IMG/VR virus record: IMGVR_UViG_3300023179_000063
DNA from: an uncultured virus (IMG/VR IMGVR_UViG_3300023179_000063)
Taxonomy: Duplodnaviria; Heunggongvirae; Uroviricota; Caudoviricetes; Crassvirales
Length of the DNA: 64,000 nucleotides
Direction: 5' to 3' (one strand)
Shown here in pieces: positions 45,101 through 62,150 of the stretch. Every line of letters starts with the position of its first letter. The first letter of the stretch is position 1. The notes under the pieces are model-generated. The model did not search any database. It was not told the origin of the DNA and saw only the letters and a list, made by a program, of their open reading frames with translations. The translations under genes and the position numbers were made by a program.

Positions 45101-48100
45101 TAAAGATTTATCTCTATGGGGTAAAATAGGTTATTTAACTCAATTACAAGATATTGTAAAAAGTAAAATAACTGATGAACAATTAGAACAATTAAAAACT
45201 ATTCAAAAAAGTCTTTCAAATGAAGTTGTTTTTGAAATTAAAGAATATGTAAAAGAAACAGGACAATTATCTGATACACTTATAAATCTTATAACTAAAT
45301 TTTATAGTTCAAATCCTAAATTACTATTTATAGATGTTATAAAATTAATTCAAAAATATTCAGAAGATAAAAATAATCCTTTTAACATTTTTTTTAAAGA
45401 TTTAAACTTTAATAATTTATATAATAAATTACTAACAACTAATGTTGAGGTTAGGGGTTCGTTAGACAAAGCTAAATCTATTTTTAATACACATTATCAA
45501 GTTTTAAATTTATCTAATTTAATTTCTAGTATTGATAGTAAATATAATAGTGTTACAGAAATAGTTACAGAAAATGCTATTAATACTGAAAAAGATATTA
45601 TAACTCCTTCTAATCAACAATTGTTTGCTATTAGAGATTTAGTTAAATTCTTTTTTAGTAAATTAAATAATACTGGATTTGGTAATTTTGCTTATTTAAA
45701 AGGGTATGCTGGTACAGGAAAAACAAACATTGTATTAAAATGGTTTTGTAAATTATCAGGTTTAAAACAAGATGAAATTTTTGCAGTTGGACATAATAAA
45801 TACTCAAGTGAAGCTATTAATAAATCAATAGGTTCTCCTAAAATTAATACAATTGAAAATCTTTTAGAAGGATTAAGTACAAATTCTTTAAATAATATTA
45901 AAGTTCTTATTATAGATGAAATAAATGGATTAAGTAAAAAAGAATTGTTGAATTTAACTAATTTAGTTACTAATTATAATAATTTAAATAAAACATCTAT
46001 TAAAATTATAGGTTTAGGAGATCCTAATCAAATAACAGTTAATGAATCTTTTGCTCCTTTAGAAGAATTATTTGCTACTCCAGAAATGTCTAATATGACA
46101 ATGATAACACCTTTAACTATTCGTTATAGAAGTAATGTTCAAGCTGTTGTAGATGCTCAAGATATTTTTATGGATAATAGTAAAGATATGGTAAAAGAAG
46201 GAATTTACTTATTTACTAATTCAGATAATTCATTAGGTGCATCTGGAAGTATAGCTAGTGATAGTATTGAAAAAATATTAAAAACTAAAGATATAAATGA
46301 TGGTAAAACAAGAGCTGTAATAGTTCATCCATCTGATGTTGAAGAATGGAAAAATAAAAATTTAGGAATAGAAGTAGTTAGCTATGTTGATGTTCAAGGA
46401 AGAACTATTGATGAAGTATATGTAGCAATTAATAATAATAGATTTGATAATTCATTAGCTTTTAATAAAGCTATGTACACAGCAACATCAAGAGCAACAA
46501 ATTTTATATTTATCCAAGGTATTCCTTCTACAGTAGTTGTAGATAATAGTATTAATAATAATGCTCAAAAAAATACTGCTCAATTAGCTGAAGCTAAAAA
46601 AGAATTTGCTCAAAATAGAAAAGATGAAGGAGAACAATTAGATGTAGAAATTAAAATTGTACCTCCGCCTACAACTCCACCTCCCTCAGACCCGGATCCA
46701 GAAAAAGATGAAGAAATTATAGATGATGAAGAAGAGGAAGAAGAGGAAGAAGAACCTGAACCGACAGGTGGTGGATCACCTTTAAATCCAAATTCTATTA
46801 ATTTAAAATACCCTACTAATGAAGCTTTATCAGGTAATGCTTTTGAAAAAATAAAACCTGTTGAAGTTGGAGAAGCTATTGTTTTTATACCTGTTAAAAA
46901 TAAACAAGGATTTTCAAGTATAGGTGTATTTGTAGATAGAGGAAATGGTAAGTTTATTCAAGTAGCTTTATTATCTCAAGAAGAATTAAATAATCCTCCA
47001 GTAGATAAAATAGATATATATAATAAATTTAAAGAAAGTTTAAATAAAAATTATACAGAATTTGTAACTAAAGATGGATATTTAAATGTGGCTCCAGGAA
47101 GTAGTTTAAATATTTTAGCTCAAGGTAAATTAGAAAATGTATCTAAATTAAAATATTACTATAAAAAAATAGGAGAAACATTTGATTGGAAAACTTTATT
47201 TGCTAAATTTAGAGAAGGATTTTTTAATACATCAGAAAGTAATAATTCTAAAATAGAAAAATCTAAAATTAGAGTATTTACAACAGCTGAAATTCGTGCT
47301 TTAAACGGTCCTAAATTAAAACCAGGAGTACCTTATGCTGTTATTACTTCTCCTACTCAACAAGGTGGAGTTGTAAATAACGATCAATATATTGAATTAG
47401 AAAGAAAAAAATTAAATAAAGATACTCATGGATTTATGATAGCTCCTTTATTACAATTTTTAGATAAATATTTTCAATTTAAATCACAATTTCCTGAATT
47501 AACTACTAATGAAATAGCAGATTTAATTGAAGCTAAAGATGATTATTTAGGAACTTTACTATCTAAATTAAATTCTAAATATCAAACTTCATATATTTTT
47601 ACTAATGAACAAAAAGAATTAAAAAAAGAAATTGATGAATTACTATTTAAACCTTTAGAACCATCAGATTTAGAATTTAAAAAGAAGATGAAAGTAAAAA
47701 ATACTGTTTCTCCTTTTATGGTCCTTGATTCAGAAGGTAAACAAAAAGAAATTAACGGTACTATAGTAAAAGTTAACGATAAAACAGTTGAAGTAAAAGT
47801 TGAAGATAAAGTTATAGAAGTTAACAAAGAAGATTTACAACCTGTTATTAAAAGAAAATCAGGTAAAGCACAAAATATATTTAATTTAATTGCTCAAGGA
47901 AATAGAACTTCTAATGGATATATTATTAGAACTACTTATGTTGATAATGGAATACAAAAAAGTAGAGGTAAAAGTCTATTACCAAGAACTGAAGATGAAG
48001 ATCCTAATATTTTATTAGAAAAATTTAATAATTTAGATGTTAAAAAACAATCTAAAATTTTAAATAAATTTAAAGAAAATTATGGTAAAGAATTTAATCC

Positions 48101-51100
48101 TGATAGTTTTACAAAGCAAGACATAGTTAATTTATTAAAATTTGTAAATTATAGTATGAGTTATAATGAACTTTTAAATATATTAAAAATTCAAAATAAT
48201 GGAGATATTAGTGATTTAAAAGTTCCTATACCAATTAATTCTAAAATAGCTGATGGTATATCTACAAAAGAATTTGATTATTCAGAAAATTATATACCTA
48301 CTGATTTAGATAAATTATTATTTGAAGATAGGTTAGAAAAAATTACTCCTACTTCAATATCAGTAAGTATTGATGGAGAAGTTAAATCTAGTAATAATGC
48401 TTCTATTTCTTTTAATGATAATACGGCATCATCTTGGGAAGATGAAGAAGATGATGATGAACCATTAACTAGATTATTACTTAAATCAAATACTTCTAAA
48501 TTAGGTAAAAGATTAAAATCTTTAGATTTATTATCTTATTTACAATCTATTGATAAAACATTAACTGCTGAAGAAATCAAATTTGTTACAGAAGCTGAGT
48601 TATTAAAATTAACTGAAGGCAAAGAAGCTTGGGGATTGTTTAGAGATGGAATTATTTATTTGTCTGAAGATAATTTTGAAGCTTTTGAAAATGTTGGAAG
48701 ACATGAATTATTTCATAGAATTTTTAATATGATGTTAACTCCATCTCAACAAAAACTTGTTTACAATAAAGCTATTGAAGAATTTGGATTACCGTCAGAT
48801 ACTTCTTTAATAGAAATAGAAGAATTGTTAGCTAGAAAATATCAAGAATGGAGGCAAGGTTCTAAAATAAATTCTTTTTTTACTATTTTATTTAATAAAA
48901 TTAAAAAGTTTTTAGGTATGGCTGTAAATATTGTGCCTGATATAAATACTTTTTTTACAAATATTGAACAAGGACAATTTAATGAAGTTATAAATAATGT
49001 TGATGGTACATCACGTTCTTATAATGATATTAGAAAAGATTTTGGTACTGCTATAAATTTTAGAAGGGCTGAACAATATATAATACAAAAATTAAATAGT
49101 TATCAAAATAAATATTATAATGAAGATAATATTAATAAAGGTAAAATACCAGAAAGTCTTGAAAAAACTTTTAGTTTAATTTTTGAACGTATAAATAAAG
49201 ATATAGATAAACTTTTAGCTAAAACTGATTTAACTGTAGAAGAAAAAGAAGATTTAGAATTTTTAAGTATAATTAAAAATCCTAGAATTTATGAAAATTT
49301 AGTAAAGGATTTATTTGAAGGATTTGATCCAAGCATTATTAAAAGAAAAAAATCAATTAATACTTTAACTACAGATAATCAAGAAATTATATCTTCTGAA
49401 AGTTGGGGTAATGAAATAGATGATGGAGAATTAAAAGATCATCAAGCTAAATTAGCTCTTAAAGTAAAACAATTTTTATCTACTATTATAAATAATAAAA
49501 CTAAGAGTCAAGTATCTCCTGGATATGTATATACTGTTTGTTTAAAGTTATTAACTAATATACCTGTAGAAAATAAAGAAAAGTTTTTAAAGATTTTAAA
49601 TGACAGAGTAAAAGAAGATTATTCTGAAAGTAATTCTAATATTAAAGCAATTATAGAAAGAATAGAAAATTTAGCTATTTGGGCTTACATGACTAATTAT
49701 TTAAATAATCCTATTCCAACTACTACAATTTTTGATACTTTTAATAGTTTTAATAATAATGGAGAAATAATTAAAAGAGAAAAAGATGAAACTAATTTTA
49801 ATTTTTTTAGACGAATATCTGATAAATCAGGAATTGATTTAAAAATGTTAAGTGTACTCTACTTAAAATATGATGCTCAACAAAGTTTGATTTCATTGAC
49901 TGTTCAAACAGGAAGTTTATATGAACAAAATGTTTTTTTTGGAGAAAATGGTTATTCTGATGGAGAATATTTTCAAGCTTTTAAAAATGCTGTAAGAGAT
50001 AATGAAGTAGTTAATTCTAAAAATAATATTATATCGGCCTTATCTAAAATATTAGTTTCAACTGATGTACCTAAATTAATTAAAGATATTAATAAAATTA
50101 AAAAAGGAATTGAAGAAGAACAAAGAAATTTTATTATTGATAATTTACAAAGTACTTTTAATATTTTACTAAGTTCTGAAGTTAAATTAGATGCTAAAAA
50201 TACCTTAGAAGATATGTTAATAGTATTAAATCATTGGAATACTGTTAAAGTTAATGATAAAGCTGAATACTTTGAAAGAGAAGCTTTAGATCATATTTCA
50301 GGAGCTGTTACAAGATTAGCTAAATTAGAATTAACAGGAGAAACATCTTACAGAGCAGGTTCATATAGAAGAACTGATGGTAAAACAGCTTATTTACATA
50401 CTTTATCTAGTAATGCTATAAATATTTTACAATCATTTATAAATGAAAAATTATTTCCTAAAAATAGTTTATATCTTAATAATCCAATATATAAATTAAA
50501 TGTTTTTCAAACAGGTATTAATAAAATTTATAATTATGTAAATTTTGACGGTGTTGTTGATAAAGATAGAAACAAAGAAGCTATTAGATATAAAAGTGAA
50601 ACTGAAAAAGATTGGTTAGATAGAAACTTTAAATATTTTTTCTTATCTCATAATAAACAAACAAATGGAAAATATGTTCAACAATTTTTAACTATATCAA
50701 ATAAACCAAATATTGTAGGAGCTGAAATAAACTTTTTAGATTGGAATAAAATACAGGAATCTATTGAAACTATTTTAAAACAACAATCTTTAAGAAACTT
50801 TAAAGGAGTTAAATATAGACAAAATTTAAATGTTTTCGATTCAATACTTAAAAGAGATAGTAAATTATCTGATACTCAATATGCTTCAGAAATTATAAAA
50901 GCTATTAAAGGAAAAAATTTAAAATCATTAATTAGTACAGAAAACTATATAGCATTATCAAATTTAAATAGTGCTATAAAAAAATATAGTGATAAAAATA
51001 TTGGAATGATGGCTGAAACTAATTCTGTAGAAGAATTAAAAGATATAGCTACAAATGAATTATTGGCTCTATATTATGCTAACTTTTTTGTTAATTCTAA

Positions 51101-54100
51101 TCAATTAAATCAATTAGTAGCTGGAGATGAAAGTTTCTATAAAAATTCATTTGATGTCATTAAACGTATGTCTATAGTTTTTGCTAATGGATACAAAGGA
51201 TTTGTAGAAAACAGTTTTGGTTTACCTAAAGAATATAGAACTCTTGTAGCTAAAGATGTAGAAGGAATGTTAGGAGAAGACTATGTTAAATTTTTAAAAA
51301 TACATGGTGCTAAATATGATTTAACAGATGCACAAGGTTATATGACTCCTAAAAGAGCTGCTCAAATAAGAAAAGCTTATGGAGAATCTTTAAAACTAGG
51401 TAATGTATTAAAACCAGTACATTTTGAAATTGATGAAAATGGAATACCTAGAGCTGTAAAATATTCTTCTATAGAATTAACCGATGAACTATGTAAAATG
51501 TTTCCTAGATTAGCTCAAGTAAGAAAAATGTTAGAAGATAACAATATAGATGAAATGGTTTTTAAATCTGCTGTTAAAGTAGGATTACCTTTAGAATTAA
51601 CTGTTCCAAATGATGATGGAAGTTTACCAGAAATTAATCCTAATAGTATTTTAACTTTACAAAATAGTAGTTATAGAATACAGTCTAATCCTGAACATAA
51701 TGTAGATGAAGATGAAATTGCATATCCTACTCAATTAGGATATTTTGCTAATTTTAGTGGGGCTAATACTGAAGTTGCTAATAAAATGTTTGATGCTATG
51801 ACTAAATTAATGAATAATGGTTTATACGAATTATTAGGTAAATTAGGATTGAGAAAAAGATTTTTAGATGATGAAAGTATTAAATTAACTTTAGAAAGAG
51901 CTAGAAATTCTGTTAGAAAATTTTTAGTTAAAAAAGAAGTTGATAAACAATCAGAAAGACAAAATGCTTTTTTAAATAATCCTAAACTTGGTATCAATAC
52001 TCCATTTTTAGTTAAAAAAGCTATTACAGAATTAGCTGCTGGTTTTACTAAAGCTACTGTAGGAATTAAACTTCCTGGTTCTGGATTAGTATTACAATCT
52101 GCTTATGGTACAGCTACTTATATAAATGCTGAAGGAAAAGAAGTTACTTCAGAATTAAAATGGAGAGATAAAGATGGATGTGCAGAAGTAGTATTACCAG
52201 ATATGTGGAAAGGTAAATTTAAAATAGGAGATAGTATTTTATTTGATACAATGGTAGGATTCCGTATTCCAGCTACTGAACTACACTCAGCAGTTCCTTT
52301 AAAAGTAGTAGGTTTTTATCCTAATAATAAAAATGTAATTATTGCTCCTGCTCAAATTGTTTATTTCCACGGTTCCGATTATGACGTAGATAAATTATAT
52401 GTTATGAGGAGAGAAATTTCTAATAATACTGTTAAATTATCTGATGGAACTATATTACATAAAGAAGGAGATGTAGTAGGTTATAAAGGAAATGAAAAAA
52501 ATGAAAATTTTGAACAGGATTTAGTACAATTATTAGCTGAAACTCAAATTAAATTAGTTGAAGCTAAATTAAAAAAAGATTCTAATTTAAAAACTCTTAT
52601 TTCTGTTTATAAATCTTTAATTGAATTACAAAATCTTTATTATAAAAATGTAATAGTAGATTCTTTTTTTAGTATTACTACAAATAAAGTAAATGAAGAA
52701 TTAATGATGTCACCTATTTCAATGGAAAGATTTAAAGGAATGGGTAAAGAAAATGAAACAGCTTTTGATTTAGTAGCAAGATTAAATGGTTTTAATTTAA
52801 AAAAACCTAAAAGAAGTGATTTTGATACAAATGAACAATTTGAAATAGAACAAGATAAATGGATTGATGAAAGAAATAAAGTAATTTTTAAAGAAAGAAA
52901 TTTATATGATTTAGAAGATCAAATGTTAATGCACAAAGATAATTTTAGTGGTACTAAACTTACTGGTTCATTTGCAAATATGGCTAAAACTATTGCTTAT
53001 TTCTTTCAATCTACAACAGATAATAAATATCCTATATTAAAAAAAGAAAATCATATTACTATAAATGGTAAAACTTATGAAGGATTAGATTATTATGAAA
53101 ATAGTGAACCTATAATTGTTAATTATGATAAAGACGGAAATCCAGTTTATTCTAAACCTATTATAACAGAAACAATAGATTCGTTAGTAAATGCTGCTAT
53201 TGATAATGTTAAAGAACAAATACTTTCTAGTATTGGATTTACTAATAATACAGGTAGTATAGCTATCTCATTAATTTCTATGGGTATTCCTTTAAATGAT
53301 GTTGTTAGAATAATGGTTTCTCCAGCTGCTAAAAGTATAAATACTGCTAATGGATTTAAAAAAGGATATGATTTAACTTTATCACAAATAAATGATAAAT
53401 TAGCTACATTATTAAATTTTAAAGATTATTCAGAATTATCAGAAGAAACTAAAACTAATCTACTAAAAGAAGTTGAAAAAATTGATATTACATCTGATAT
53501 GTTAGAAAAGAATATTAATAAAAATATTCAAGAAATGAATAAACAAGAACTTTTAGAACAAAAAGCAATTTTATTAAAAATAATATCTAAAGGAGATGAT
53601 ATAGCTTCTAGTTTAGGAGATGGAGTAACAGCATTTGGAGTATTAAAAGGATTTGATATAACATTACATGGTATGCAAAATGTTTTAGATAGTTTTGATA
53701 ATATGTGGGATGATCAAACTAATACTAAAAATTCTAAATTTATATTTGAAAATGTTAATCCTATAAAACTTCCTCATATTAATAAAGCTTTTTATATTTT
53801 AAAAACATTAAAATCTAATATAGAACGATTATTTTTTGTAGAAAATAAAGCATTACAAAAACTATCTTTTAGTGTATTAGGAACTTCAGGAGTAAAAATA
53901 TGGGATAGAATAGAAGGAGAAACTGCTTTAAAAATAAGAGAAAATTTCATACATTATTTTATGACAGGTCTAAAATACACTACCCCAGAAGGATATGAAA
54001 TCAGTCATGATATGACTAATGAAGAAATGTATGAAATTGCTGGAAAAGAATATATAGGAAATGAAGCTTGGAATAAAAGATTTGTTGATCAAGTATTAAA

Positions 54101-55040
54101 ATTAAAATTAGAAAATCCTTCCAATTTATTTTTAAAGAAACTATCTGTTAATAAATATGGTCAATTAGTATTTCCTTCATTAAAAAATGTAAAACAAGCT
54201 GATATTTTAGCTTATCAAAGTGACTTTGAAAAATTAGCTGTTAATGGGGTATTTACTGAATTACAATATAATTTTGTTAAATATGCTGTATTAAATCAAG
54301 GACTTTCATTTGGAGCTTCTAACTTTTCATTAATTTTGCCTGATAAAATTTATGAGCCTTTAATGGAAGAGTTTAATAGGTCTTTAACTGAATTAACAGC
54401 AAATTCTGATAGTTTTGAAAAGAAATTATCTCAAGTATTATCTAATTTTACTGTACAATATTTATTAAACAATGGAGATAGGATATTAACTAAAGTAAAA
54501 TTCCAAGACACGACACCAGGCCTTAATGGTAATATTTTTGTTCCTAAAGATGCTTTAAAAGAACCTGTATTATATTTAAAAGTAGGTACTAAAATGTATT
54601 ATAATGTAGGAGAAGAAGCTACTAACTGGAAATATGCTGAAATAGGTTATTTTTCAAGATATACTCAATATCAATTTAAAGATAAATTATTTGAAGAAAA
54701 CTATAGTTTAAATAAAGCTTTTGATTCTTCAGTTGTAACATTAAAAGTTAAAAATAATAAGCCTAAAAACAATATCTTTGAAAATTCAAATGAATATGTT
54801 AAAGGTCAAAAAATAAGACTTGTTAATTATTCTGATATATCAAGATTAAATATGATAGAATATACTATAGATGAGGTTACTAAAAAAGGAGATAAATATT
54901 CATATAAATTAGTTAATTCTCAAGAAGTTAGTACTATTTTAACTGATTCTGAAATTATCGAATCTAAAGAATTTAAACAATTAGTTGCAGATGGTATGAT
55001 ACCTGAAGTAGCATTACAAAAAATTAAAAATAAATGTTAA
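42120..55040 (+). CDS. Giant virion RNA polymerase polyprotein (membrane-like N-terminus, SF1 helicase, zincin, two-barrel RNAP)
   Basis: 4306 aa; catalytic GSDYDVDKL (52371-52397), GFRIP, LTDAQGY; helicase GYAGTGKT / IIDE / GDPNQ / YRS / VQGRT / YTATSRA; HELFH zincin. Confidence 0.9.
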   Translation: MAKKIKTPVKELIDYYLSKDNTNEYLGKPVTEAPIPRLGGPQVEENEWSRYDKNSYFNENLEERRSRNQDGWDAFGIGAARLLGQGITKTAAGAGMVAGLFGIDNSNEKYLNENSNFSQKIAAWIAGAADNGLAVVANELEKNLIDATPLYNSTADKEANKASMFNNLTDGDFWAGEGVDAAAFLLSAYLTGGAATEANIGGKIASTLAKGKIFGSNINKIAKLTNQATATALQTASESMFEAKDVRDSLREQKAQEKYSLPFESLNPQQQNEINVEVAPAAAKTFALNTAALIVPNFFEMGQLMKKAGRTVGTVEGLAAKGLSTVEKEIGDKVLWNTLPLGKVGKALNKFANTKIGAGFNNALVSMGREGLYEENIQTAISNLMESDPDASITDIGKIAKGMYNNFSSEEGKKSMLLGSLIGGLAGGISGGIEYSRNKERQKNAITASAISGHNLFKANNPYEIETYEEIVDGKPVKKTRYKLDENGQPIIDSAKMKSIIADKDHLEYLDDIATLAEEKGDNVLANIAKSHSMAKWVKSHFDTGTENLLQDKIDYLKELSDQELLEQGIDPNKKNEYISRLENKTKEFTALANQIGGSLLSRDNSKEGAKKFNARKSELYNIGVTLSSVREEKARLEEEKARLSSSPESTILAEKQLAYADLKIKELTEAENKFNEEFKKIADFKNGQDYFNNDYKKSIVEKIDDIDHATVTLDEFNAYENSKLYKSELGLKADNIESEFFEKGIDERLQNEPLENILDDLEYLDASITQSTKDKLQSIEEAKTQNLDSLESAIIDIQNGEEPNAPQEIIDEANSFFDENGDIDSDKLEEFQNAQKINASNLNKISNLPIKEKQEVTKKTSKEKILEKFTKTIKGITFNAENNDDYDNVKEIETAIKKLQNFIKVLKEKNDEDYRDVITTYENDLIQLEQLLIKVKERLNDKALQQEKFVQENLNNMISSFGINEEGAIINKEIYDIIKDILGDEILNLKEKLKDLSLWGKIGYLTQLQDIVKSKITDEQLEQLKTIQKSLSNEVVFEIKEYVKETGQLSDTLINLITKFYSSNPKLLFIDVIKLIQKYSEDKNNPFNIFFKDLNFNNLYNKLLTTNVEVRGSLDKAKSIFNTHYQVLNLSNLISSIDSKYNSVTEIVTENAINTEKDIITPSNQQLFAIRDLVKFFFSKLNNTGFGNFAYLKGYAGTGKTNIVLKWFCKLSGLKQDEIFAVGHNKYSSEAINKSIGSPKINTIENLLEGLSTNSLNNIKVLIIDEINGLSKKELLNLTNLVTNYNNLNKTSIKIIGLGDPNQITVNESFAPLEELFATPEMSNMTMITPLTIRYRSNVQAVVDAQDIFMDNSKDMVKEGIYLFTNSDNSLGASGSIASDSIEKILKTKDINDGKTRAVIVHPSDVEEWKNKNLGIEVVSYVDVQGRTIDEVYVAINNNRFDNSLAFNKAMYTATSRATNFIFIQGIPSTVVVDNSINNNAQKNTAQLAEAKKEFAQNRKDEGEQLDVEIKIVPPPTTPPPSDPDPEKDEEIIDDEEEEEEEEEPEPTGGGSPLNPNSINLKYPTNEALSGNAFEKIKPVEVGEAIVFIPVKNKQGFSSIGVFVDRGNGKFIQVALLSQEELNNPPVDKIDIYNKFKESLNKNYTEFVTKDGYLNVAPGSSLNILAQGKLENVSKLKYYYKKIGETFDWKTLFAKFREGFFNTSESNNSKIEKSKIRVFTTAEIRALNGPKLKPGVPYAVITSPTQQGGVVNNDQYIELERKKLNKDTHGFMIAPLLQFLDKYFQFKSQFPELTTNEIADLIEAKDDYLGTLLSKLNSKYQTSYIFTNEQKELKKEIDELLFKPLEPSDLEFKKKMKVKNTVSPFMVLDSEGKQKEINGTIVKVNDKTVEVKVEDKVIEVNKEDLQPVIKRKSGKAQNIFNLIAQGNRTSNGYIIRTTYVDNGIQKSRGKSLLPRTEDEDPNILLEKFNNLDVKKQSKILNKFKENYGKEFNPDSFTKQDIVNLLKFVNYSMSYNELLNILKIQNNGDISDLKVPIPINSKIADGISTKEFDYSENYIPTDLDKLLFEDRLEKITPTSISVSIDGEVKSSNNASISFNDNTASSWEDEEDDDEPLTRLLLKSNTSKLGKRLKSLDLLSYLQSIDKTLTAEEIKFVTEAELLKLTEGKEAWGLFRDGIIYLSEDNFEAFENVGRHELFHRIFNMMLTPSQQKLVYNKAIEEFGLPSDTSLIEIEELLARKYQEWRQGSKINSFFTILFNKIKKFLGMAVNIVPDINTFFTNIEQGQFNEVINNVDGTSRSYNDIRKDFGTAINFRRAEQYIIQKLNSYQNKYYNEDNINKGKIPESLEKTFSLIFERINKDIDKLLAKTDLTVEEKEDLEFLSIIKNPRIYENLVKDLFEGFDPSIIKRKKSINTLTTDNQEIISSESWGNEIDDGELKDHQAKLALKVKQFLSTIINNKTKSQVSPGYVYTVCLKLLTNIPVENKEKFLKILNDRVKEDYSESNSNIKAIIERIENLAIWAYMTNYLNNPIPTTTIFDTFNSFNNNGEIIKREKDETNFNFFRRISDKSGIDLKMLSVLYLKYDAQQSLISLTVQTGSLYEQNVFFGENGYSDGEYFQAFKNAVRDNEVVNSKNNIISALSKILVSTDVPKLIKDINKIKKGIEEEQRNFIIDNLQSTFNILLSSEVKLDAKNTLEDMLIVLNHWNTVKVNDKAEYFEREALDHISGAVTRLAKLELTGETSYRAGSYRRTDGKTAYLHTLSSNAINILQSFINEKLFPKNSLYLNNPIYKLNVFQTGINKIYNYVNFDGVVDKDRNKEAIRYKSETEKDWLDRNFKYFFLSHNKQTNGKYVQQFLTISNKPNIVGAEINFLDWNKIQESIETILKQQSLRNFKGVKYRQNLNVFDSILKRDSKLSDTQYASEIIKAIKGKNLKSLISTENYIALSNLNSAIKKYSDKNIGMMAETNSVEELKDIATNELLALYYANFFVNSNQLNQLVAGDESFYKNSFDVIKRMSIVFANGYKGFVENSFGLPKEYRTLVAKDVEGMLGEDYVKFLKIHGAKYDLTDAQGYMTPKRAAQIRKAYGESLKLGNVLKPVHFEIDENGIPRAVKYSSIELTDELCKMFPRLAQVRKMLEDNNIDEMVFKSAVKVGLPLELTVPNDDGSLPEINPNSILTLQNSSYRIQSNPEHNVDEDEIAYPTQLGYFANFSGANTEVANKMFDAMTKLMNNGLYELLGKLGLRKRFLDDESIKLTLERARNSVRKFLVKKEVDKQSERQNAFLNNPKLGINTPFLVKKAITELAAGFTKATVGIKLPGSGLVLQSAYGTATYINAEGKEVTSELKWRDKDGCAEVVLPDMWKGKFKIGDSILFDTMVGFRIPATELHSAVPLKVVGFYPNNKNVIIAPAQIVYFHGSDYDVDKLYVMRREISNNTVKLSDGTILHKEGDVVGYKGNEKNENFEQDLVQLLAETQIKLVEAKLKKDSNLKTLISVYKSLIELQNLYYKNVIVDSFFSITTNKVNEELMMSPISMERFKGMGKENETAFDLVARLNGFNLKKPKRSDFDTNEQFEIEQDKWIDERNKVIFKERNLYDLEDQMLMHKDNFSGTKLTGSFANMAKTIAYFFQSTTDNKYPILKKENHITINGKTYEGLDYYENSEPIIVNYDKDGNPVYSKPIITETIDSLVNAAIDNVKEQILSSIGFTNNTGSIAISLISMGIPLNDVVRIMVSPAAKSINTANGFKKGYDLTLSQINDKLATLLNFKDYSELSEETKTNLLKEVEKIDITSDMLEKNINKNIQEMNKQELLEQKAILLKIISKGDDIASSLGDGVTAFGVLKGFDITLHGMQNVLDSFDNMWDDQTNTKNSKFIFENVNPIKLPHINKAFYILKTLKSNIERLFFVENKALQKLSFSVLGTSGVKIWDRIEGETALKIRENFIHYFMTGLKYTTPEGYEISHDMTNEEMYEIAGKEYIGNEAWNKRFVDQVLKLKLENPSNLFLKKLSVNKYGQLVFPSLKNVKQADILAYQSDFEKLAVNGVFTELQYNFVKYAVLNQGLSFGASNFSLILPDKIYEPLMEEFNRSLTELTANSDSFEKKLSQVLSNFTVQYLLNNGDRILTKVKFQDTTPGLNGNIFVPKDALKEPVLYLKVGTKMYYNVGEEATNWKYAEIGYFSRYTQYQFKDKLFEENYSLNKAFDSSVVTLKVKNNKPKNNIFENSNEYVKGQKIRLVNYSDISRLNMIEYTIDEVTKKGDKYSYKLVNSQEVSTILTDSEIIESKEFKQLVADGMIPEVALQKIKNKC

Positions 55041-55041
55041 T

Positions 55042-58000
55042 ATGAGCTTTTGTCCTAATAAATCATCTTCACAATATAAAGCATTAGTTTCTCAATTAGG
55101 GGAAATTGATGCTTATAATGCTTGGTATTTAAAAAATAAAGCATTATTATCTGATACTCCTATGCCTGTTAAACCAGGAGTAGAAGAACTATTTGATTCT
55201 AATCAAGAGCTTGCTAATCAAGTATATGAAGCTTTAGGAATAATTGTACCAACTAATGTAAAAGTTAAAGGTAAAGTTTTGTATGCTGGTAAAGAGTATC
55301 CTAATACTTTTCAAATTACATTTCAGAATAATGATAATAAATATATAGGATTTGCTAAAATAAACAATCAAAACATTGATTCTATAGAATTACAACCTGA
55401 ATTTAGAAAACAAGGATTAGGTACAGAAATTTATGTATTATTAGGAGAAGAACTTGCTAAAAATAATATTACTCTTGAGTCAGCTTATTATACAGGTTCT
55501 CAACTAACTCAACAAGCTAAGGCTACTTGGGAATCATTAGTTAAAAAAGGATACGCAATAAAAACAGAAAACAATTACAAATTTGTAAGTAAAGCACAAC
55601 AAAAACAACAAGCTCAACAACTATACTCTCGATATCTTGATACAACACAAAATCAATTTATATCTTCAAATGATAAAGTAGTATTTGGTCACCCTACTAT
55701 TGGTAAAAGTTTCTTAAAGAAACAAGGAGAAGATAAATTTATTTCTTTAGATGATGATTATGCTACAGAAATAAATAATAAAGTAAAAGAGATAGCTGAT
55801 AAATATAATGTAACAGCTTATCAAGTTAAAGATGGTGGTACTCAAAAATGGAATAATGAGTATAATCAAATGATGCAAGAAATGTTTAATGTTGCAAAAC
55901 AAAAAGCTATTTCTGAAAACAAAACTTTATTTACTTCTAACACTAACCTGTTAAAAAACAACGCAGATTCTTTTGATAAAGTTATAAATCTTACAAATGT
56001 AGAATTTGAAAAAAGAATACAAGAAAGAGGAGCCAAATATGATATTAAAGAATGGAAATCTCAAATTAATGAAGCTATTTCTAAAATACCTACAAGTAAA
56101 GTAATAAATACTGATAAGTATCTTTCTGATTTATTTATAACACCACAACAAAAACAACAAGCTCTACAACTATACTCTCAATACTTAGATACTGTATTTC
56201 CTAATAGTAAAGTAAAGGATATTGTTTATCATGGTAGTAATCAAAAAATAAATCAATTTGAAGTTAGAAAAGAACCTTTAATACATTTTGGTTCTAAAAA
56301 TGCAGCTTTACAAAGAGGTGATGTACTAAATCAAGTTATTCTTAATATCAAAGATTTACAAACTATTAAAGATGGTATGTGGTTTTTAGGTACAGATGAA
56401 GGAGGACTACTTAAAGAATTACTTGATAGAAATATTTTAACTATTGAAGAAGTAAAAAGTATCAATAAAACTAAAAATGAAGCTATTCAACAATCTCCAT
56501 ATTTTCATGAAAATTATAGAATGGCTATACCCGAAGGAGAAAAAGCAGGTAATAAAAAGCTTCAAGAAATATTAGGGGGTAAAGATATTGGATTTGAATA
56601 TAAAAATTTTAGTGAAGATACAGGTAGTACAAGTTATGCAGTACCAAGTCAAGAACAAATTCACATACTTGGTAGTAAACAAGATATAGAAGGATTTAAA
56701 GAGTTTGTTAAAAAATCTAATGAACCAATTATACCTTCAATTGAAGAAGCTAATAATTTATTACAAAACAAACCAATGTTTAGTATTGCTGATCCAAATA
56801 TTAAATACGAACAAGAATATAAACTTTTATTAAAACAATATCCTAATTTATTAGATTCTAATTATTCTCCTAGTATAATTAAAAAACTAATTACACAAAT
56901 TAATAATGCTTTTACTACATTAGTTGCAACAGCTACTCAATCTATTGAATCAGGTGGATTATTTGATAAGATTAAAATTTCTAAAAAAATAGAAAGTCCT
57001 AAAATTGTAAATGAATATTTAATAGAAAGACTTCAAAAAATGTTTCCTAAAACAAAAGTTAAACTATTGTCAATAGAAGAAGCTTATAATTTAATAGGAG
57101 AAGATGCTTATAATGCAAATAGTTTTATTTTAAAAGATACAGTTTATATTTTAAGAGATAAAATAAATAATGAAACTATTATTGAAGAATTTTTACATCC
57201 TTTTGTAGAATATTTATTTCAAAATAATAATGATTTATATTTAAATCTTGAAAAAGAAGCAATGCTAGATGAAACTTTAAAAAAATCTATTAGTAGTAGA
57301 TATTCTAAATTTAGTGTAGTTGATAAAAAGAAAGAAATGGTTACACAAAAGTTAGCCGAATTATTAAATGAAGAATTTAAAAACAAACCTAAAAATATTA
57401 ATGAATTAAGACAGTTACTTCAAACTATTTATAAGGAATTGTCAAATTTTTTTTACAGGGTGTTTGGAGGAAAAAACTATATAGATTTTAATAATTTATC
57501 TACTACAATGTCTTTAGATACTTTAGTACAAATTATGAATACAGAAGATGTTGTTCTTCCTGTAGAGTATATCAATAGACCTACATATAGCATTATTGAT
57601 GATATTAAAAATCAAGTACATAAAGAAGGATTTAAATTAAAAGATGATAAATATGTTGATATAAATGGTAATACTTATGAAAGATTAACTGAATGGGTAA
57701 GAAATACTTTTAGTAAAAATAAAGGAAAAACAACTTTAACTTTTGCTACTTATAAAGCTAATGCTATATTTAAAAAAGAAACAAAAACAATAGTTAATGG
57801 AGTTGAAACAATTAAATTACCTAATGGAGTAGATATTTCTTTAGAAGATTTAATTGTTATGATTGTCAGAGAAATGGAAACGGCTAAAATTTATGGTACA
57901 TTAGCTCATAAAATGATGGATATATGTATTAAAAATTTAATGGGAATTAATACAGATATTTTAAGAAATGAATTAAAAACATTAGCTGCTGGTGGAACTG

Positions 58001-60978
58001 ATTATGACCCTATTGATTTAGATAAATTTGATTGGATTGAAGTAAATATTGAAAGAATTTTAGCTAAATCAGGAATTATTATTAAAGATGATAGATTAGA
58101 TAGTAAACAATTAGATAAAATAGAATCTGAATTACCTTACATTTTAAAAGAATTAGGTATTGGAACAACTATAGATGGGTTGTTAGAACATAATGATGGT
58201 TATTTATCTATTAGAGATTGGAAAACTGGTAGGATTTTAAACGATCAAATGACATCAGATGTAATGCTTTACGGTAATCAATCTGAAATAATAAGAGATA
58301 GTAAATTAGATAGAGCTAAATTAGAAGTTGTATTAAGAGCATTAATGATTAAATATCAAAATCCTACAGCTAAATTTAGACAATTATCTATAGAATATCT
58401 TAATAGAAATACTTTAGTTGAAACAATGAATATTGATTTAGATATTTATTTAGCTCAATTACATGATTATTTTAGAGAAAATGACCCTAAATTATTTGAA
58501 GATTTTAAAAATAAAGGATTATTTGATAAAAGAAATTATGGTATTAAAATAGTAGAAAATGATGAAAAAACTTCTGAAACTAAAGAAGAACAATTAAAAG
58601 CTTTAAATGATTCTATAGCTATTTTAAAAAATCAAGCAGATGTAGAAAAAGACCCTTATCTTAGAAGTCAATATAGAAATCAATTAGCTAAATTAAGTAA
58701 AGAAAGATTAGATTTAGAACAAATTATTCCTCATTCTTTAGATAGTATTGATTCTCAAGTCGGTAAATGGAAAAAATGGACTGGAGATTTAAAGTCTGTT
58801 TCTCAACCTATTATACAATCTTTTAGTAGATTACTCAATAAAAATACTTATGATTATAACATGGAAGTAAAAGCTTTACATCGTGAATTTGATGTATTGC
58901 AAAAAAAATTAATGGATGAACATGGAGTAAATTTTAAAAATACATTATTAAAATACAAAACTAAAGATAATAGTGGATTATATGATTTTATGTGGGTTTT
59001 AAAAGATAAATCAACTGTTAAAGGTTATTTTAAAGTTACACCAGATGATAAAGCAGAATGGGCTAAATTAACTGATACTCAAAAAGAATATATTAATTTT
59101 TTTACTAAAAATATTGAAGAATTATATAATGAAGTTGGTAGTAAAGTAGTATATAAAGATATTCATGGTTATAAAAAAACTAATTTTGATATAGCTAAAA
59201 TTCCTAAAAAATTAGAATCTGATTTTATGCCTAGAACTTTTATGGATTTAGGAGATTTTATAGAAGTAAATGGAGTAAATAAATCAACAGCTATATTTGA
59301 ATGGAATCAATATAAAAGACAATTTTTTAAAAGTGAATTTTATGCTAACAATTCATTTGAAGCAATGCCATTTAAAAATATGGGATCAGATGCTATTATA
59401 GGAGGACAAATGCACTCTTTTAATGCTGAATTAGCTTTTAAATCTTTTACTCAAAATTTAATTAAAAAGAAACATTTAGATGAAGTTCATAATATTGGAG
59501 TAGGATTAACTAATTATTTTAGAAATGAAAATCAAGAAGAAAATGCTGAATTTTTAGAAAGTAGAATACTGATAGAAATTTTAGATGCTAAATTAAAAAC
59601 TAAATTAAGTAAAAAAGTATTTTCTTATGTATCTAAAAAAACAAATAGACTTATTGAAGTAGATTCAGATGCTATTTTTGATACATTAAGAAATGCTGTT
59701 ACAGCTGGAACTATGTGGTTAAAACCTGGGGCCGCTGCTAAAAATGCAGTTTTATTACTTATTACAAATCATAAAAAAGGATTATTAGGATCAATTAGTA
59801 AAAAATTTGGAGTTAATCCTGACGATATAGATTTTAGTGAAAAAGATTTACTAGAAGCTGAATTAGAATGGGCTAAAATGCAAAAAGATAGACTTACAAA
59901 AACTCCTAATAAATTAGATTTATTATTAAAAGAATTTAATTATTTACCTGAATATTATGATTTTGCTGCTCATAAATCACAAATGATGTCAGAAAGAAAT
60001 AAATTACTTAATCAAGATCATTTATATTTATTACATTCATTTTTTGAAGATTGGGGAACAACTTCAATTTTAACAGCTATGTTAATACATCAAAAAAATA
60101 AAAAGACTGGAAAAAGTATTTTAGATAGCTATGAAGTAGAAGATGGTAAAGCTGTTTGGAAAGGTGGTATAAGAGGTAAAAGACAAGATGGAACAGTAAT
60201 AGAAGGAATAACTTATGAAGAAATGAGCAAATATAAAAAAATAGGAGCTACTTTAACAGGTAACTATCGTAAATCAGAAAGAGGAGCAATAGAATTATAT
60301 GCTTTAGGAAGAGTAGTTATGCAGTTTAAAAGATTTGTTCCTCAACAATTATATAATTTATTACAATCAAAACAAGAATTAGATTCTTATGGTAAATTTA
60401 TTGAGCTTACTGATGAAAATGGAAATGTACAACTAAGTAAAGATGGAGAAACTATTTATTCTTGGAAACCTGATGTAGTAGAAGGACGTTATAGAGTAAT
60501 GTTAAAATTTTTATTAAATGCAGTACATATATTAAATAATCCTTCTTATAATTTTAAAAACCTTTCTTCAAGACAAAAACAAGAAGTTATAAGTACTTTT
60601 ATGATGGTTATACAAATGGCTTTAACTGCTGCTACTTATGCTGTTTTATTTGACGATGATGAAGAAGAAACGTATTTAGCTAAAACTTATTTAAGACTTA
60701 CTAATGATTTATCAGATGGTATGTATCCAACAGATATGTTAAATAACTTTTTATCAACATCTTTACCTAAAAAAGCTTATGATGTTGCTAAAGCTTCTTC
60801 AGAATTTTTATTTGGTATTACTACTGGAGAAAGAACTCAAAAAGGTTATGTTAGAGGAGAATTACAATTGTCTAAAAATTTACCTATTTTTTCTTCTATT
60901 TATGAAATAGATAAAATTAATGATAATATTAAAAATGGTAAAGCTTTTGGATTAACAGGATACCAAGACGAAGAATAA
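55042..60978 (+). CDS. Giant virion cargo protein 3, polyvalent (GNAT, P-loop, ART-like, metallopeptidase-like, PD-(D/E)XK)
   Basis: 1978 aa; EFRKQGLG, GHPTIGKS, IVYHGS...IHFG, IIEEFLHPF, YGTLAH...IDGLL...DWKTG; C-terminal GRVVMQFKRF...EGRYR. Confidence 0.75.
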   Translation: MSFCPNKSSSQYKALVSQLGEIDAYNAWYLKNKALLSDTPMPVKPGVEELFDSNQELANQVYEALGIIVPTNVKVKGKVLYAGKEYPNTFQITFQNNDNKYIGFAKINNQNIDSIELQPEFRKQGLGTEIYVLLGEELAKNNITLESAYYTGSQLTQQAKATWESLVKKGYAIKTENNYKFVSKAQQKQQAQQLYSRYLDTTQNQFISSNDKVVFGHPTIGKSFLKKQGEDKFISLDDDYATEINNKVKEIADKYNVTAYQVKDGGTQKWNNEYNQMMQEMFNVAKQKAISENKTLFTSNTNLLKNNADSFDKVINLTNVEFEKRIQERGAKYDIKEWKSQINEAISKIPTSKVINTDKYLSDLFITPQQKQQALQLYSQYLDTVFPNSKVKDIVYHGSNQKINQFEVRKEPLIHFGSKNAALQRGDVLNQVILNIKDLQTIKDGMWFLGTDEGGLLKELLDRNILTIEEVKSINKTKNEAIQQSPYFHENYRMAIPEGEKAGNKKLQEILGGKDIGFEYKNFSEDTGSTSYAVPSQEQIHILGSKQDIEGFKEFVKKSNEPIIPSIEEANNLLQNKPMFSIADPNIKYEQEYKLLLKQYPNLLDSNYSPSIIKKLITQINNAFTTLVATATQSIESGGLFDKIKISKKIESPKIVNEYLIERLQKMFPKTKVKLLSIEEAYNLIGEDAYNANSFILKDTVYILRDKINNETIIEEFLHPFVEYLFQNNNDLYLNLEKEAMLDETLKKSISSRYSKFSVVDKKKEMVTQKLAELLNEEFKNKPKNINELRQLLQTIYKELSNFFYRVFGGKNYIDFNNLSTTMSLDTLVQIMNTEDVVLPVEYINRPTYSIIDDIKNQVHKEGFKLKDDKYVDINGNTYERLTEWVRNTFSKNKGKTTLTFATYKANAIFKKETKTIVNGVETIKLPNGVDISLEDLIVMIVREMETAKIYGTLAHKMMDICIKNLMGINTDILRNELKTLAAGGTDYDPIDLDKFDWIEVNIERILAKSGIIIKDDRLDSKQLDKIESELPYILKELGIGTTIDGLLEHNDGYLSIRDWKTGRILNDQMTSDVMLYGNQSEIIRDSKLDRAKLEVVLRALMIKYQNPTAKFRQLSIEYLNRNTLVETMNIDLDIYLAQLHDYFRENDPKLFEDFKNKGLFDKRNYGIKIVENDEKTSETKEEQLKALNDSIAILKNQADVEKDPYLRSQYRNQLAKLSKERLDLEQIIPHSLDSIDSQVGKWKKWTGDLKSVSQPIIQSFSRLLNKNTYDYNMEVKALHREFDVLQKKLMDEHGVNFKNTLLKYKTKDNSGLYDFMWVLKDKSTVKGYFKVTPDDKAEWAKLTDTQKEYINFFTKNIEELYNEVGSKVVYKDIHGYKKTNFDIAKIPKKLESDFMPRTFMDLGDFIEVNGVNKSTAIFEWNQYKRQFFKSEFYANNSFEAMPFKNMGSDAIIGGQMHSFNAELAFKSFTQNLIKKKHLDEVHNIGVGLTNYFRNENQEENAEFLESRILIEILDAKLKTKLSKKVFSYVSKKTNRLIEVDSDAIFDTLRNAVTAGTMWLKPGAAAKNAVLLLITNHKKGLLGSISKKFGVNPDDIDFSEKDLLEAELEWAKMQKDRLTKTPNKLDLLLKEFNYLPEYYDFAAHKSQMMSERNKLLNQDHLYLLHSFFEDWGTTSILTAMLIHQKNKKTGKSILDSYEVEDGKAVWKGGIRGKRQDGTVIEGITYEEMSKYKKIGATLTGNYRKSERGAIELYALGRVVMQFKRFVPQQLYNLLQSKQELDSYGKFIELTDENGNVQLSKDGETIYSWKPDVVEGRYRVMLKFLLNAVHILNNPSYNFKNLSSRQKQEVISTFMMVIQMALTAATYAVLFDDDEEETYLAKTYLRLTNDLSDGMYPTDMLNNFLSTSLPKKAYDVAKASSEFLFGITTGERTQKGYVRGELQLSKNLPIFSSIYEIDKINDNIKNGKAFGLTGYQDEE
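55597..56192 (+). repeat. Pair of 47-bp in-frame direct repeats (55597-55643 and 56146-56192)
   Basis: caacaaaaacaacaagctc(a/t)acaactatactctc(g/a)ata...gatac, 42/47 identical, 549 bp apart; encode QQKQQA(Q/L)QLYS(R/Q)YLDT. Confidence 0.9.
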
Positions 60979-61013: not shown

Positions 61014-61235
61014 TTAATTATTAGGTTCTATTTTAAGTGGACAATTTAGTTTAGTTTCTTCTATACAATCAGGTGCTGATATAACAGATGTATAAATTAT
61101 CTCTTGTGTTTCTCTACCTCTTATTGTGTCATGTTGATAAGTAATATGTCTAAGACAATTATTTTTCATAACACAATGTATATTGTTACTTGTAATACCT
61201 GTACAACGGGAAGTATCATTATTTAATAATTTCAT
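61014..61235 (-). CDS. Small Cys-rich hypothetical protein
   Basis: D.SRC.G.....C..KNNCLR...C...C pattern. Confidence 0.6.
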   Translation of the reverse strand: MKLLNNDTSRCTGITSNNIHCVMKNNCLRHITYQHDTIRGRETQEIIYTSVISAPDCIEETKLNCPLKIEPNN

Positions 61236-61999
61236 ATTTCTTTTGTTTTAAATTTACTAATATCTAAATCTTTTTTAATAATTAAACTTTTATAAGTTTT
61301 ATAAAATTCATCTATTCCTATTTCTTCAGTAAAGTATTTAATATATTCTCTTAATATTATTGTACTAAACTCAATATTAATTAAATTAGCTGTTTGTTTA
61401 ATTCCTTCAGCATATTTAACACCTTTACCTGGAAGACCTTTTACGTTATTATGATTACCAGTTATCATTTGACTCCAAAAATTAAATTCTTCTTGCTCTT
61501 TAGTAGTAGTAATCCAAGCTTCTTTTCTCCAATTGTAATGAGTACCTTCAGTTCCTAATATATCAGAATCTATTGCACATATAAAACTATCAGGTGTTTG
61601 TTTATAAAAAGATACTACAAATTCATCTACTTCATAATCATTAGCTGTAAAAATGTTATATCTTTTTATTAAATCTTCTTTAACAAACTGCCACCATTTA
61701 GGACTTATAGTTGGCCTATTTTGTTTATAATCAGAATTATATTTTAATTTAGATTGAATTGTATTTTTACCTTTTATAAAACCTATATATTCAGTACAAC
61801 CTGATTTAGATAAAATACTATTCATTACAAAATCAACTGATTCAATAAGTTGTTCTTCTGTTTTATCTATATAAACTAACTTATTGTTTTCTTTTTGGTA
61901 TATAGGATTACCTAATTCATCAACTCCTATTTCAATTTTAATACCTGCACCTATACTAAAGGCAACAGAATCCATGTCTATAACTGCTATTTTATTCAT
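61232..61999 (-). CDS. 5'-3' exonuclease / flap endonuclease (T7 gp6/T5-like)
   Basis: AVIDMDS, YKQNR, YEVDE, IDSD, QMITG...N.KGLPGKG (H3TH); ATG 61999 preferred. Confidence 0.85.
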   Translation of the reverse strand: MNKIAVIDMDSVAFSIGAGIKIEIGVDELGNPIYQKENNKLVYIDKTEEQLIESVDFVMNSILSKSGCTEYIGFIKGKNTIQSKLKYNSDYKQNRPTISPKWWQFVKEDLIKRYNIFTANDYEVDEFVVSFYKQTPDSFICAIDSDILGTEGTHYNWRKEAWITTTKEQEEFNFWSQMITGNHNNVKGLPGKGVKYAEGIKQTANLINIEFSTIILREYIKYFTEEIGIDEFYKTYKSLIIKKDLDISKFKTKEI

Positions 62000-62150
62000 A
62001 ATGTGTTGATAAATAATCAAGTAAATATTTAGCATAAGTTACTAAATATTCTTGATTATTAAATGTAAATTGTGTTTCTTGTTTAATGATAGCTTCTTCG
62101 TATGCTTGTTGAAACTGTTCAAATTTGTCTTGATTAAATAATTGTGTCAT
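61992..62150 (-). CDS. Small hypothetical protein (52 aa)
   Basis: Read manually: MTQLFNQDKFEQFQQAYEEA...F.FNNQEYLVTYAKYLLDYL. Confidence 0.6.
   Translation of the reverse strand: MTQLFNQDKFEQFQQAYEEAIIKQETQFTFNNQEYLVTYAKYLLDYLSTHYE

Follow-up and report, generated by a model that had tools for sequence, protein, structure and literature searches.

The 64,000-nucleotide stretch of DNA analysed here (IMG/VR record IMGVR_UViG_3300023179_000063; called the window, at its whole length, throughout) has 26.6% GC, derives from an uncultured crAss-like phage and contains an open reading frame (ORF; positions 55042-60978, 1978 amino acids (aa)) in which three enzyme-like modules are set between short, strongly conserved motifs. 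The encoded protein consists, in this order, of a leader, motif A, a GNAT-like acetyltransferase domain, motif B, a P-loop kinase domain, a second motif B, an ART-PolyVal-type ADP-ribosyltransferase (ART) domain, motif C and a body of 1421 aa. We propose, with a probability of roughly 0.6, that the motifs are both helical linkers and anchors for homologous recombination, allowing enzyme modules to be exchanged, gained or lost in frame within a cargo protein of the type of crAss001 gp49 and phi14:2 g065. The anatomy of the array, the fold families of its modules, the variable content of its slot, its mosaic identity and the conservation of its motif DNA were observed directly.

All elements of the array are encoded on the plus strand. 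The left delimiter, motif A (VKPGVEELFDSNQELANQVYEALG; 55168..55239), stands out as an identity peak and by its instances in a hidden Markov model (HMM) search, and the right delimiter, motif C (HILGSKQDIEGFKEFVK; 56662..56712), as an identity peak and a predicted helix. Motif B, recognised as a repeat and likewise a predicted helix, is present as SKAQQKQQAQQLYSRYLDT (55588..55644) and again as FITPQQKQQALQLYSQYLDT (56134..56193), and conservation past this second copy extends through VFPNSKVKDIVYHG to about 56238. When the N-terminal region was compared with 150 relatives by BLAST, conservation rose in four sharp peaks corresponding to the three motifs, with values of about 0.9 in A and 0.8-1.0 in C. 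The consensus is [IV]KPGVxELFxSNPELANxVYEALGF for A, ITPQQKQQAxQLYSQYLDTIFPDSKVKDIVYHG for B, with its two copies in the window, and HILGSKQDIEGFKEFV for C. Structure models predict B and C to be helical; the helix of the second B spans model residues 4-21, with 10-residue block means of 90, 91 and 88 over residues 1-30. The sequence AGGAG in motif A was considered as an internal Shine-Dalgarno-like start signal and rejected, as no in-frame start codon follows it; Bacteroidota rarely use Shine-Dalgarno-type sites.

At the nucleotide (nt) level the two B copies form a repeat of 49 nt (55595-55643 and 56144-56192), identical at 44/49 positions (90%) and spaced 549 nt, or 183 codons, from start to start. 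An earlier reading of this DNA, made from its letters without database searches (the sequence-only reading), had described essentially the same repeat as 47 bp, 42/47 identical and 549 bp apart, and had placed a quoted peptide and three enzyme-like segments in one frame, in agreement with the translation from 55168. The B repeat is the best in the gene: its best 49-mer pair has 44 matches, a number that was only 33-35 when the codons of the ORF were shuffled 20 times, and the peptide QQKQQAxQLYSxYLDT was found in no other frame of the window.

The recurrence of the motifs was evaluated by searching 1.84 billion protein representatives with residues 1-573. This gave 1112 proteins at E<=1e-3, of 84-5649 aa, with the matched parts at very different positions; the library of this search holds one protein per 50%-identity cluster. 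HMMs of the motifs were run on 150 listed proteins and on the ORFs of loci fetched with degenerate DNA patterns, and yielded 272 matches for A, 234 for B and 285 for C in 324 proteins or ORFs. Since the loci partly overlap, the counts that follow refer to unique segments where so stated. The relatives bearing A, B and C are uncultured, AT-rich crAss-like phages of a freshwater lineage, and their usual unit is A-X-B-ART-C with a single module X. Adjacent motif pairs were AB in 209 cases, BC in 186, AC in 40 and BB in 2, so that the double B of the window is rare, and in 19 pairs B runs directly into C. The single type of linker assumed in the sequence-only reading had to be replaced by three types.

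The content of the A-to-B slot is highly variable, an outcome that the sequence-only reading had named as support for its idea. Its 154 unique segments fall into 55 BLAST clusters, among them one of 41 kinase segments, which includes the window kinase, one of 35 GNAT-like segments, which includes the window GNAT, and 39 singletons. For 33/37 locus-derived X representatives no Pfam family was matched at E<=1e-3; the X content that could be named comprises AAA_33/Zeta-toxin-like kinases and a SLOG/deoxyribosyltransferase-like domain, with DUF7831 among whole proteins. The B-to-C interval is of another kind, 120/124 unique segments belonging to one cluster with an ART nearly throughout. The ART is thus a near-constant partner, and the earlier view of it as a freely swapped cassette needs correction. 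An empty slot is seen in 33/36 unique A-to-C segments, in which A breaks off halfway and continues through 'xIGTxx' into the second half of B. Because these empty units join half of A to half of B, X is best regarded as a domain inserted into a part of the ART module near its N-terminus.

The unit is not tied to one place in its carriers. Among 77 unique motif-bearing ORFs (80 loci), 26 have it N-proximal in a long ORF, 16 have it C-proximal, 14 are short ORFs and 21 could not be assigned. The DNA pattern of motif B had three matches in 185,579 species genomes, in metagenome-assembled genomes labelled Nitrososphaeraceae (L221, L222) and Flavobacterium sp. (L223), and the motif thus seems to be essentially viral. 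The Nitrososphaeraceae label is probably due to mis-binned phage contigs; Flavobacterium may be a host, which is a plausible lead and no more. Among 50,697 GenBank phage records, the N-terminal 573 aa matched no motif or array; the kinase part alone was matched, in 5 records.

Motif conservation extends to the DNA. Although the patterns used for scanning admitted all synonymous codons and favoured none, motif DNA is nearly invariant across loci (54 unique DNA instances of A and 86 of C). Several of the nearly fixed codons are rare in the window genes: Leu is CTA in 41/54 instances of A and 39/53 of B, against 5.8% of Leu codons in window genes, Thr is ACC in 29/45 cases in the motifs (1.8% window usage), Gly is GGG in 38/52 cases in motif A (3.1%) and Glu is GAG in 30/36 cases in motif C (4.6%). 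Codons with equally common synonyms are fixed as well, namely Ile ATA (39/40), Val GTT (28/29) and Ser TCT (55/56) or AGT (27/31). In the ART alignment, the codon homozygosity of residues with four- to six-fold degeneracy in B and C is mostly 0.8-1.0, with several columns at 0.4-0.7, where 0.3-0.5 is expected.

Orthologues of the window protein differ in domain order: their arrays vary or are absent, and the points of divergence coincide with the motifs; the invariant order that would have spoken against the sequence-only reading was not found. The most informative one, P0040, is identical to the window protein at 39/42 residues of the leader, 21/24 of A, 17/17 of C and 1388/1421 of the body (97.7%). 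Its interior is different: it consists of an unrelated X of 126 aa and an ART identical to the window's at only 24/116 residues, without a kinase. When the DNA of P0040 was sought, viral contigs gave only distant ART units (best 45% full-length; short partial matches up to 84%) and metagenome contigs gave zero matches, so that its breakpoints are defined at the protein level only. P0025 has the single-X form leader-A-GNAT-B-ART, with a GNAT of the window type (71% identity as listed). In L005, L006 and L007 there is no array, and the leader is joined to 'EPVIPTVEQAKKLL', the counterpart of 'NEPIIPSIEEANNLL', which in the window directly follows C.

Modules of the window type are also found in other company. 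The window-type kinase occurs in L001 as B-kinase-C and in L003 as A-kinase-B-ART. Compared with L001, the window kinase is 87% identical in aa and 89% in nt, while the body is 48% and 62% and the upstream giant gene 53% and 66% identical, respectively. In L003 the kinase is 91% (aa) and 92% (nt) identical, the ART 39% (aa) and the protein after C 24% (aa). The window-type ART recurs in L048 (73%), in the order leader-B-ART-C, and at 64-81% identity in L004, as the first part of an ORF of its own. The complete order in L001 is leader-A-[348 aa]-B-kinase-C-body, without an ART. Its 348-aa cassette (L041:1545-2585 (-), L001 residues 73-420) carries HELIH in the A-to-B slot, matches no Pfam family at E<=0.01 and is possibly, judging from this motif, a zincin-type peptidase. 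A more distant orthologue of 2007 aa is encoded by the human-gut Suoliviridae phage cr55_1 (L218, MT774376.1; 11719-17742); it starts with a like leader, MSIICPN..., and its kinase-like domain, which shares 35% identity with that of the window, is followed by an ART-like domain recognised by eye. The ratio of observed to expected CpG (0.13-0.24) is alike in cassettes, body and upstream gene, with a count of 1 per cassette, and thus gave no contrast.

The stretch is present in freshwater and lake metagenome runs, four of which (X2-X5) were compared at the level of contigs; X2 belongs to a different study from the probable source. In X2, four contigs tile the region with 0 mismatches at word depths of 573, 524, 536 and 570, the somewhat lower values of the kinase and ART contigs (524 and 536 versus 570-573) not being usable as evidence. 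Their overlaps lie in B1, B2 and C and cover the positions that distinguish B1 from B2. Contigs of other, rarer phages, at word depths of about 20-110, match the window in the motif DNA alone and depart from it beyond, giving A-to-B joints with other content, and in one B-to-C joint just 14 other letters stand between the motifs. Since these contigs share motif DNA with the window phage in the lake runs, partners for an exchange do co-occur. As far as contigs can tell, these data support the arrangement of the window as real and not an assembly chimera.

From the mosaicism we infer that recombination takes place at the motifs. A cargo-protein gene would have gained an in-frame array of three modules between its 42-aa leader and its body. 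The near-identical motif DNA of otherwise distant phages would provide the stretches of homology for crossover, and co-infecting phages could swap, add or lose modules by homologous recombination with the frame always kept. The second B of the window may be the scar of an added kinase cassette, and recombination between B1 and B2 would give back the usual single-X form. Tentatively, and with rather less than even confidence, we suggest a more specific scheme, in which cassettes are exchanged in frame and without a dedicated recombinase into a fixed slot before the ART module of injected gp49/gp50 proteins; a cassette would begin with NxVYEALGF, the latter half of A, and end with ITPQQKQQA, the initial half of B, and the pool would hold at least 55 domain clusters, mostly without a known family. 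Homing endonucleases beside some junctions (e.g. in L004) may drive such exchanges. The proposal of the sequence-only reading that the repeats are anchors for swapping is largely supported, by the variable slot content, by the mosaicism and by a conservation of motif DNA beyond codon bias, its recombination step being what the mosaicism suggests.

Several observations weigh against exchange at the motifs. In the contigs of the four runs no 549-nt deletion joint was found, contigs being prone to drop rare variants, and no recombinant molecule was seen in them. The orthologue of cr55_1 has its kinase-like and ART-like domains without any A, B or C motif, so that the architecture in itself does not require them. 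Codon homozygosity is only modestly higher in motif columns (mean 0.73, n = 20) than in conserved columns of the kinase interior (0.60, n = 18; one-sided Mann-Whitney p = 0.023), and the kinase control comes from 12 fairly close sequences. In the 210 pairs formed by 21 kinase+ART units, the identity of the kinases shows no correlation with that of the ARTs (r = -0.10), a result partly built in by the 50%-cluster library, which drops pairs alike in both modules. Because of this exclusion, only the existence of discordant pairs counts: kinase identity reaches 80% or more in 30 pairs, and in none of these does ART identity exceed 40%. The window ART scores only 14.4 bits (E 0.069) against Pfam ART-PolyVal (PF18760), below the gathering cut-off of 31.2 bits, and in a MAFFT alignment it has Q where 27/36 relatives have Asp. 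Lastly, the motifs are strongly conserved as peptides, and B and C are confident predicted helices; for these reasons a role at the protein level is also likely and could be the main cause of their persistence.

This last point leads to the main rival explanation, according to which the motifs are kept for a protein-level reason, as helices of the ART module, as a hairpin for the inserted domain or as a handle for packing or threading, with exchange as a side effect. Besides the predicted helices of B and C, it can draw on the empty units, in which ELFDSNPELA-xIGTxx-QYSQYLD...VKDIVYHG reads as a continuous N-terminal element of the ART in 33/36 unique A-to-C segments, and on the helical segments of the cargo protein gp45 bound inside the crAss001 tail barrel (PMC10172136, in the part available). 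It leaves unexplained, however, why rare or equally common codons are nearly fixed across units with unrelated neighbours, and why kinases 87-91% identical lie in surroundings only 24-48% identical. As a substitute for recombination we therefore consider it unlikely, yet a function of the helices in scaffolding, packing or threading besides recombination is likely, and the two readings are compatible with each other. Clustering of the rare codons CTA, ACC, GGG, GAG and TAC in the linkers could also reflect translational pausing between domains that aids co-translational folding and is unrelated to recombination. Pausing does not predict fixation among equally common codons (ATA 39/40, GTT 28/29, TCT 55/56, AGT 27/31) and does not explain the mosaic pattern of identity, and we regard it as very improbable.

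The array might also be a polyprotein with the motifs as cleavage sites, from which a protease of phage or host frees the enzymes before packing or after injection. Autoproteolytic release of domains by zincin-type peptidase domains has been proposed for polyvalent proteins (Iyer et al. 2017, PMC5512222, in the part available), and the HELIH of the L001 cassette has a parallel in HEFIH in the L048 body. A Pfam scan detected no peptidase family in the 1978-aa protein of the window, however, the L001 cassette is without a Pfam match, helical motifs of 17-25 residues exceed the usual length of a cleavage site, and conservation at the DNA level would stay unexplained, which together make cleavage improbable. 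That the double B is an artefact, produced by mis-joining cassettes of co-occurring phages at shared motifs, is suggested by contigs of all runs breaking at B1, B2 and C and by the presence of these words in other phages of the same samples. The zero-mismatch tiling in X2 at similar depths (524-573, versus about 20-110 for motif-only contigs), the overlaps that include positions at which B1 and B2 differ, and the same kind of B-to-kinase junction in L001, P0017, P0039 and others make this scarcely credible. Weighing all of this, we prefer in-frame exchange by homologous recombination at motifs that double as helical linkers.

The folds of the three modules proposed in the sequence-only reading hold at the level of families, through a profile for the GNAT, a model and Foldseek for the kinase, and an alignment and model for the ART, with the window copies of GNAT and ART below the Pfam cut-offs. 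Cassette 1 (residues 67-182; 55240..55587), identified by Pfam and profile search, is probably a GNAT-like acetyltransferase as judged from its sequence. The window copy lies below the cut-off in three Pfam GNAT families (E 0.002-0.009, 16.7-19 bits), and 3/11 GNAT relatives match Acetyltransf_1 (best 2.6e-5). A profile of the 11 family members matches the solved GNATs RibT (6.9e-4) and a RimI-type enzyme (4.4e-3), with 29 rows at E<=1 against PDB sequences, mostly acetyltransferases. The GNAT signature is Q/RxxGxG/A, and the window segment contains RKQGLG. The best PDB match of the profile is to colicin S4 (3few, residues 178-219, E 9.9e-5); it covers positions 17-57 of alignment A2, falls on the motif A side, off the GNAT core, and is possibly due to chance.

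Cassette 2 (residues 202-364; 55645..56133), recognised by its Walker A sequence GHPTIGKS, its model and Foldseek, has the predicted fold of a P-loop kinase like those acting on nucleoside monophosphates (NMP-kinase-like). The model has a predicted local distance difference test (pLDDT) score of 89.5, and the Foldseek rows listed are nearly all P-loop kinases (E 2.9e-3 to 3.6e-2, probability 0.72-0.99), including shikimate, adenylate, dephospho-CoA, thymidylate and polynucleotide kinases and Fap7, with one GH18-like row. Lys, Asp and Arg columns are invariant in the kinase alignment. Against PDB sequences the kinase profile had a single match, 9m8o Gp15 (E 9.9e-4), which covers the P-loop alone.

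Cassette 3 (residues 385-540; 56194..56661), identified by alignment and model, belongs to a family that can be assigned to ART-PolyVal by sequence, and the alignment places the window copy in it as a divergent member. ART-PolyVal is matched at E<=0.01 by 25/36 aligned relatives (best 4.6e-12), with P0040 (48.5 bits), P0086 (43.3) and P0041 (40.0) above the cut-off; the match of the ART profile to PDB sequences was weak (best E 0.32). The predicted model of the cassette shows an ADP-ribosyltransferase fold. In the H-Y-E/D clade of this fold, catalysis relies on a His of strand 1, an aromatic residue of strand 2 and an acidic residue of strand 5. The window ART keeps the His of YHG, the Phe of HFG and the Glu of QEQIHILG, and its acidic residue may possibly have shifted to D151 (numbered in the alignment sequence) in GKDIGFEY.

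The leader (residues 1-42, MSFCPNKSS...; 55042..55167) is kept in orthologues with and without an array, among the latter L005-L007; over residues 1-67 the window protein is 78% identical to L001. The body (residues 558-1978; 56713..60978) was identified by hhalign and HMM as a cargo protein of the gp49/g065 type associated with RNA polymerase (RNAP). With a profile of 6 sequences, hhalign aligned it to crAss001 gp49 and phi14:2 g065 over 401 columns (probability 98.3, E 1.8e-14), and with one of 3 sequences at a probability of 97.0 (E 8e-11); an HMM match to the 2007-aa protein of cr55_1 had an E of 7.8e-13. An earlier 5-sequence HMM also matched gp49 (E 4.4e-12), but depended largely on L002 and L003, neither of whose bodies is linked to the window by BLAST. 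A plain HMM from three bodies matched none of gp49, g065 and the cr55_1 protein, and residues 561-1978 had zero tblastn matches among GenBank phages, so that profiles were required for the homology to gp49. PHROGs has no family for either giant protein, of 4306 or 1978 aa. The counterpart of gp49/g065 occupies the same slot, directly after the giant RNAP gene, and on homology and position ORF 55042-60978 is the counterpart of these two proteins.

The upstream giant ORF (42120..55040, plus strand; 4306 aa), whose stop lies 2 nt before the start of the array gene, encodes a crAss-type RNAP-subunit-like cargo protein according to the ORF list, tblastn and Pfam. By tblastn (E 1e-6 to 3e-8), its residues 2138-2374 resemble crAss-like phage genes annotated as 'putative RNA-polymerase subunit', and residues 1190-1463 (45687-46508) form an SF1-helicase-type P-loop domain (Pfam AAA_30 1.6e-7, Viral_helicase1 4.9e-5). 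Both genes belong to a same-strand block of giant ORFs downstream of the genes for a crAss-type large terminase, portal and major capsid protein (PHROGs E 2e-124, 2.7e-127 and 7.2e-76, respectively). The ORFs after the array gene (61232-62035 and 62158-63999) are on the opposite strand.

Some further observations concern the giant proteins and their neighbourhood. Body residues 944-1065 (57871-58236) form a PD-(D/E)XK-like stretch (PDDEXK_1, E 6.6e-5, 23.4 bits versus a cut-off of 22), also matched in P0040. The 4306-aa protein has 5 Cys, one as its last residue (...KIKNKC; window positions 55036-55053 span the ORF junction), the 1978-aa protein has 2, of which one is residue 4 (MSFC...), and the products of ORFs 35010-39983 and 40090-42114 have zero. 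Many giant or fragmentary relatives (P0012, P0015, P0058, P0082, L004:103-9132 and ORFs of L086 and L095) have a B-like motif near their end; the conserved tail behind it terminates in ...KKCN, ...KKCS or ...NNCN, and C-terminal-side arrays directly precede this tail. In L004, a GIY-YIG and NUMOD3 homing endonuclease gene (L004:9123-9800 (+); Pfam 4.1e-10 and 8.3e-7) lies between the giant ORF with the B-like tail and the ORF headed by the ART. A GIY-YIG-like ORF of the window (14750-15562) is located away from the array.

Delivery of the 1978-aa protein into the host together with the DNA is likely by analogy, because its body is homologous to gp49 and g065, which are reported from virions, and because its gene has the same place after the RNAP gene. 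The available part of PMC10172136 reports gp49 among the crAss001 virion proteins detected by mass spectrometry and proposes that the cargo proteins unfold in part as they are ejected through the tail; for phi14:2, the annotation of g065 in GenBank draws on tandem mass spectrometry (MS/MS) proteomics. The window protein would thus be packed, injected and act early on host targets, and we infer an anti-host function of its enzymes.

What happens in the first minutes of infection is believed to depend decisively on injected multi-enzyme proteins, and the array offers a testable grammar for how such a toolkit is renewed, strains 97.7% identical in the body carrying different modules. The motifs are a simple handle for finding candidate effectors in viromes and allow recombination breakpoints to be predicted. 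They also call for caution, as it is at the motifs that assemblies of such phages from short reads break and that wrong joins could arise. If our interpretation is true, the slot pool would be a large unexplored reservoir of injected enzymes for host takeover or anti-defence.

In polymorphic toxins (CdiA with VENN, Rhs with DPxGL, prophage MuF-toxins) a short motif borders a variable enzymatic domain that is exchanged by recombination. The array is alike in working, but is not a member of this class: its variable domain is internal and not C-terminal, it can be stacked, and its carrier is a cargo protein of a lytic-type phage. Among the window ORFs, no small or immunity gene follows each cassette and no orphan cassettes were seen. 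With integron gene cassettes the array shares a slot that gathers many unrelated cassettes with conserved ends. In contrast to integrons, its cassettes stand in frame within one ORF, the repeats are coding linkers with no attC-like element, and exchange would proceed by general homologous recombination; no integrase-like family was found among the 24 window ORFs scanned.

Closer relatives are found among phage proteins that travel with the genome. T4 Alt, a head-packed and injected ART that modifies host proteins, is a functional precedent, but belongs to the R-S-E clade and, as an internal protein with a single domain, differs from a cassette of a giant protein (PMC5512222, in the part available). 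crAss001 gp49 and phi14:2 g065 share with the window protein the place after the giant RNAP gene and homology over about 400 C-terminal residues. The motif strings had no occurrence in the full-text literature (subscription journals and supplements being outside the search), and no description of these linkers was found in literature on crAss-like phages, ART, polyvalent proteins or domain shuffling, nor in the available parts of PMC7886860 and PMC11054128. Within the literature searched, a trio of motifs with nucleotide-level conservation, a slot grammar of this kind and slot content on such a scale in crAss-type cargo proteins thus seem to be unpublished.

By the definition of Iyer et al. 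(2017; PMC5512222, in the part available), the array protein belongs to the polyvalent proteins. Like those proteins, it combines disparate enzymes in one polypeptide (ART, GNAT, kinase and nuclease-like), here GNAT-like, P-loop kinase and ART-fold domains plus the PD-(D/E)XK-like stretch in a single ORF. As with them, its gene is a phage gene in a late or virion context, on the same strand as terminase, portal, major capsid and an RNAP-like ORF upstream, and polyvalent proteins are likewise tied to the virion RNAP module and predicted to accompany the DNA into the host. The ARTs of polyvalent proteins are described as having an H-Y-D active site, and recombinational variability has been raised for one kinase-bearing polyvalent system; 'linker' and 'crAss' have 0 occurrences in the text available from that source. 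What sets the window apart from the polyvalent proteins described is the combination of three motifs conserved down to synonymous sites, an A-X-B-ART-C slot grammar and carriers of the crAss-type gp49/gp50 kind.

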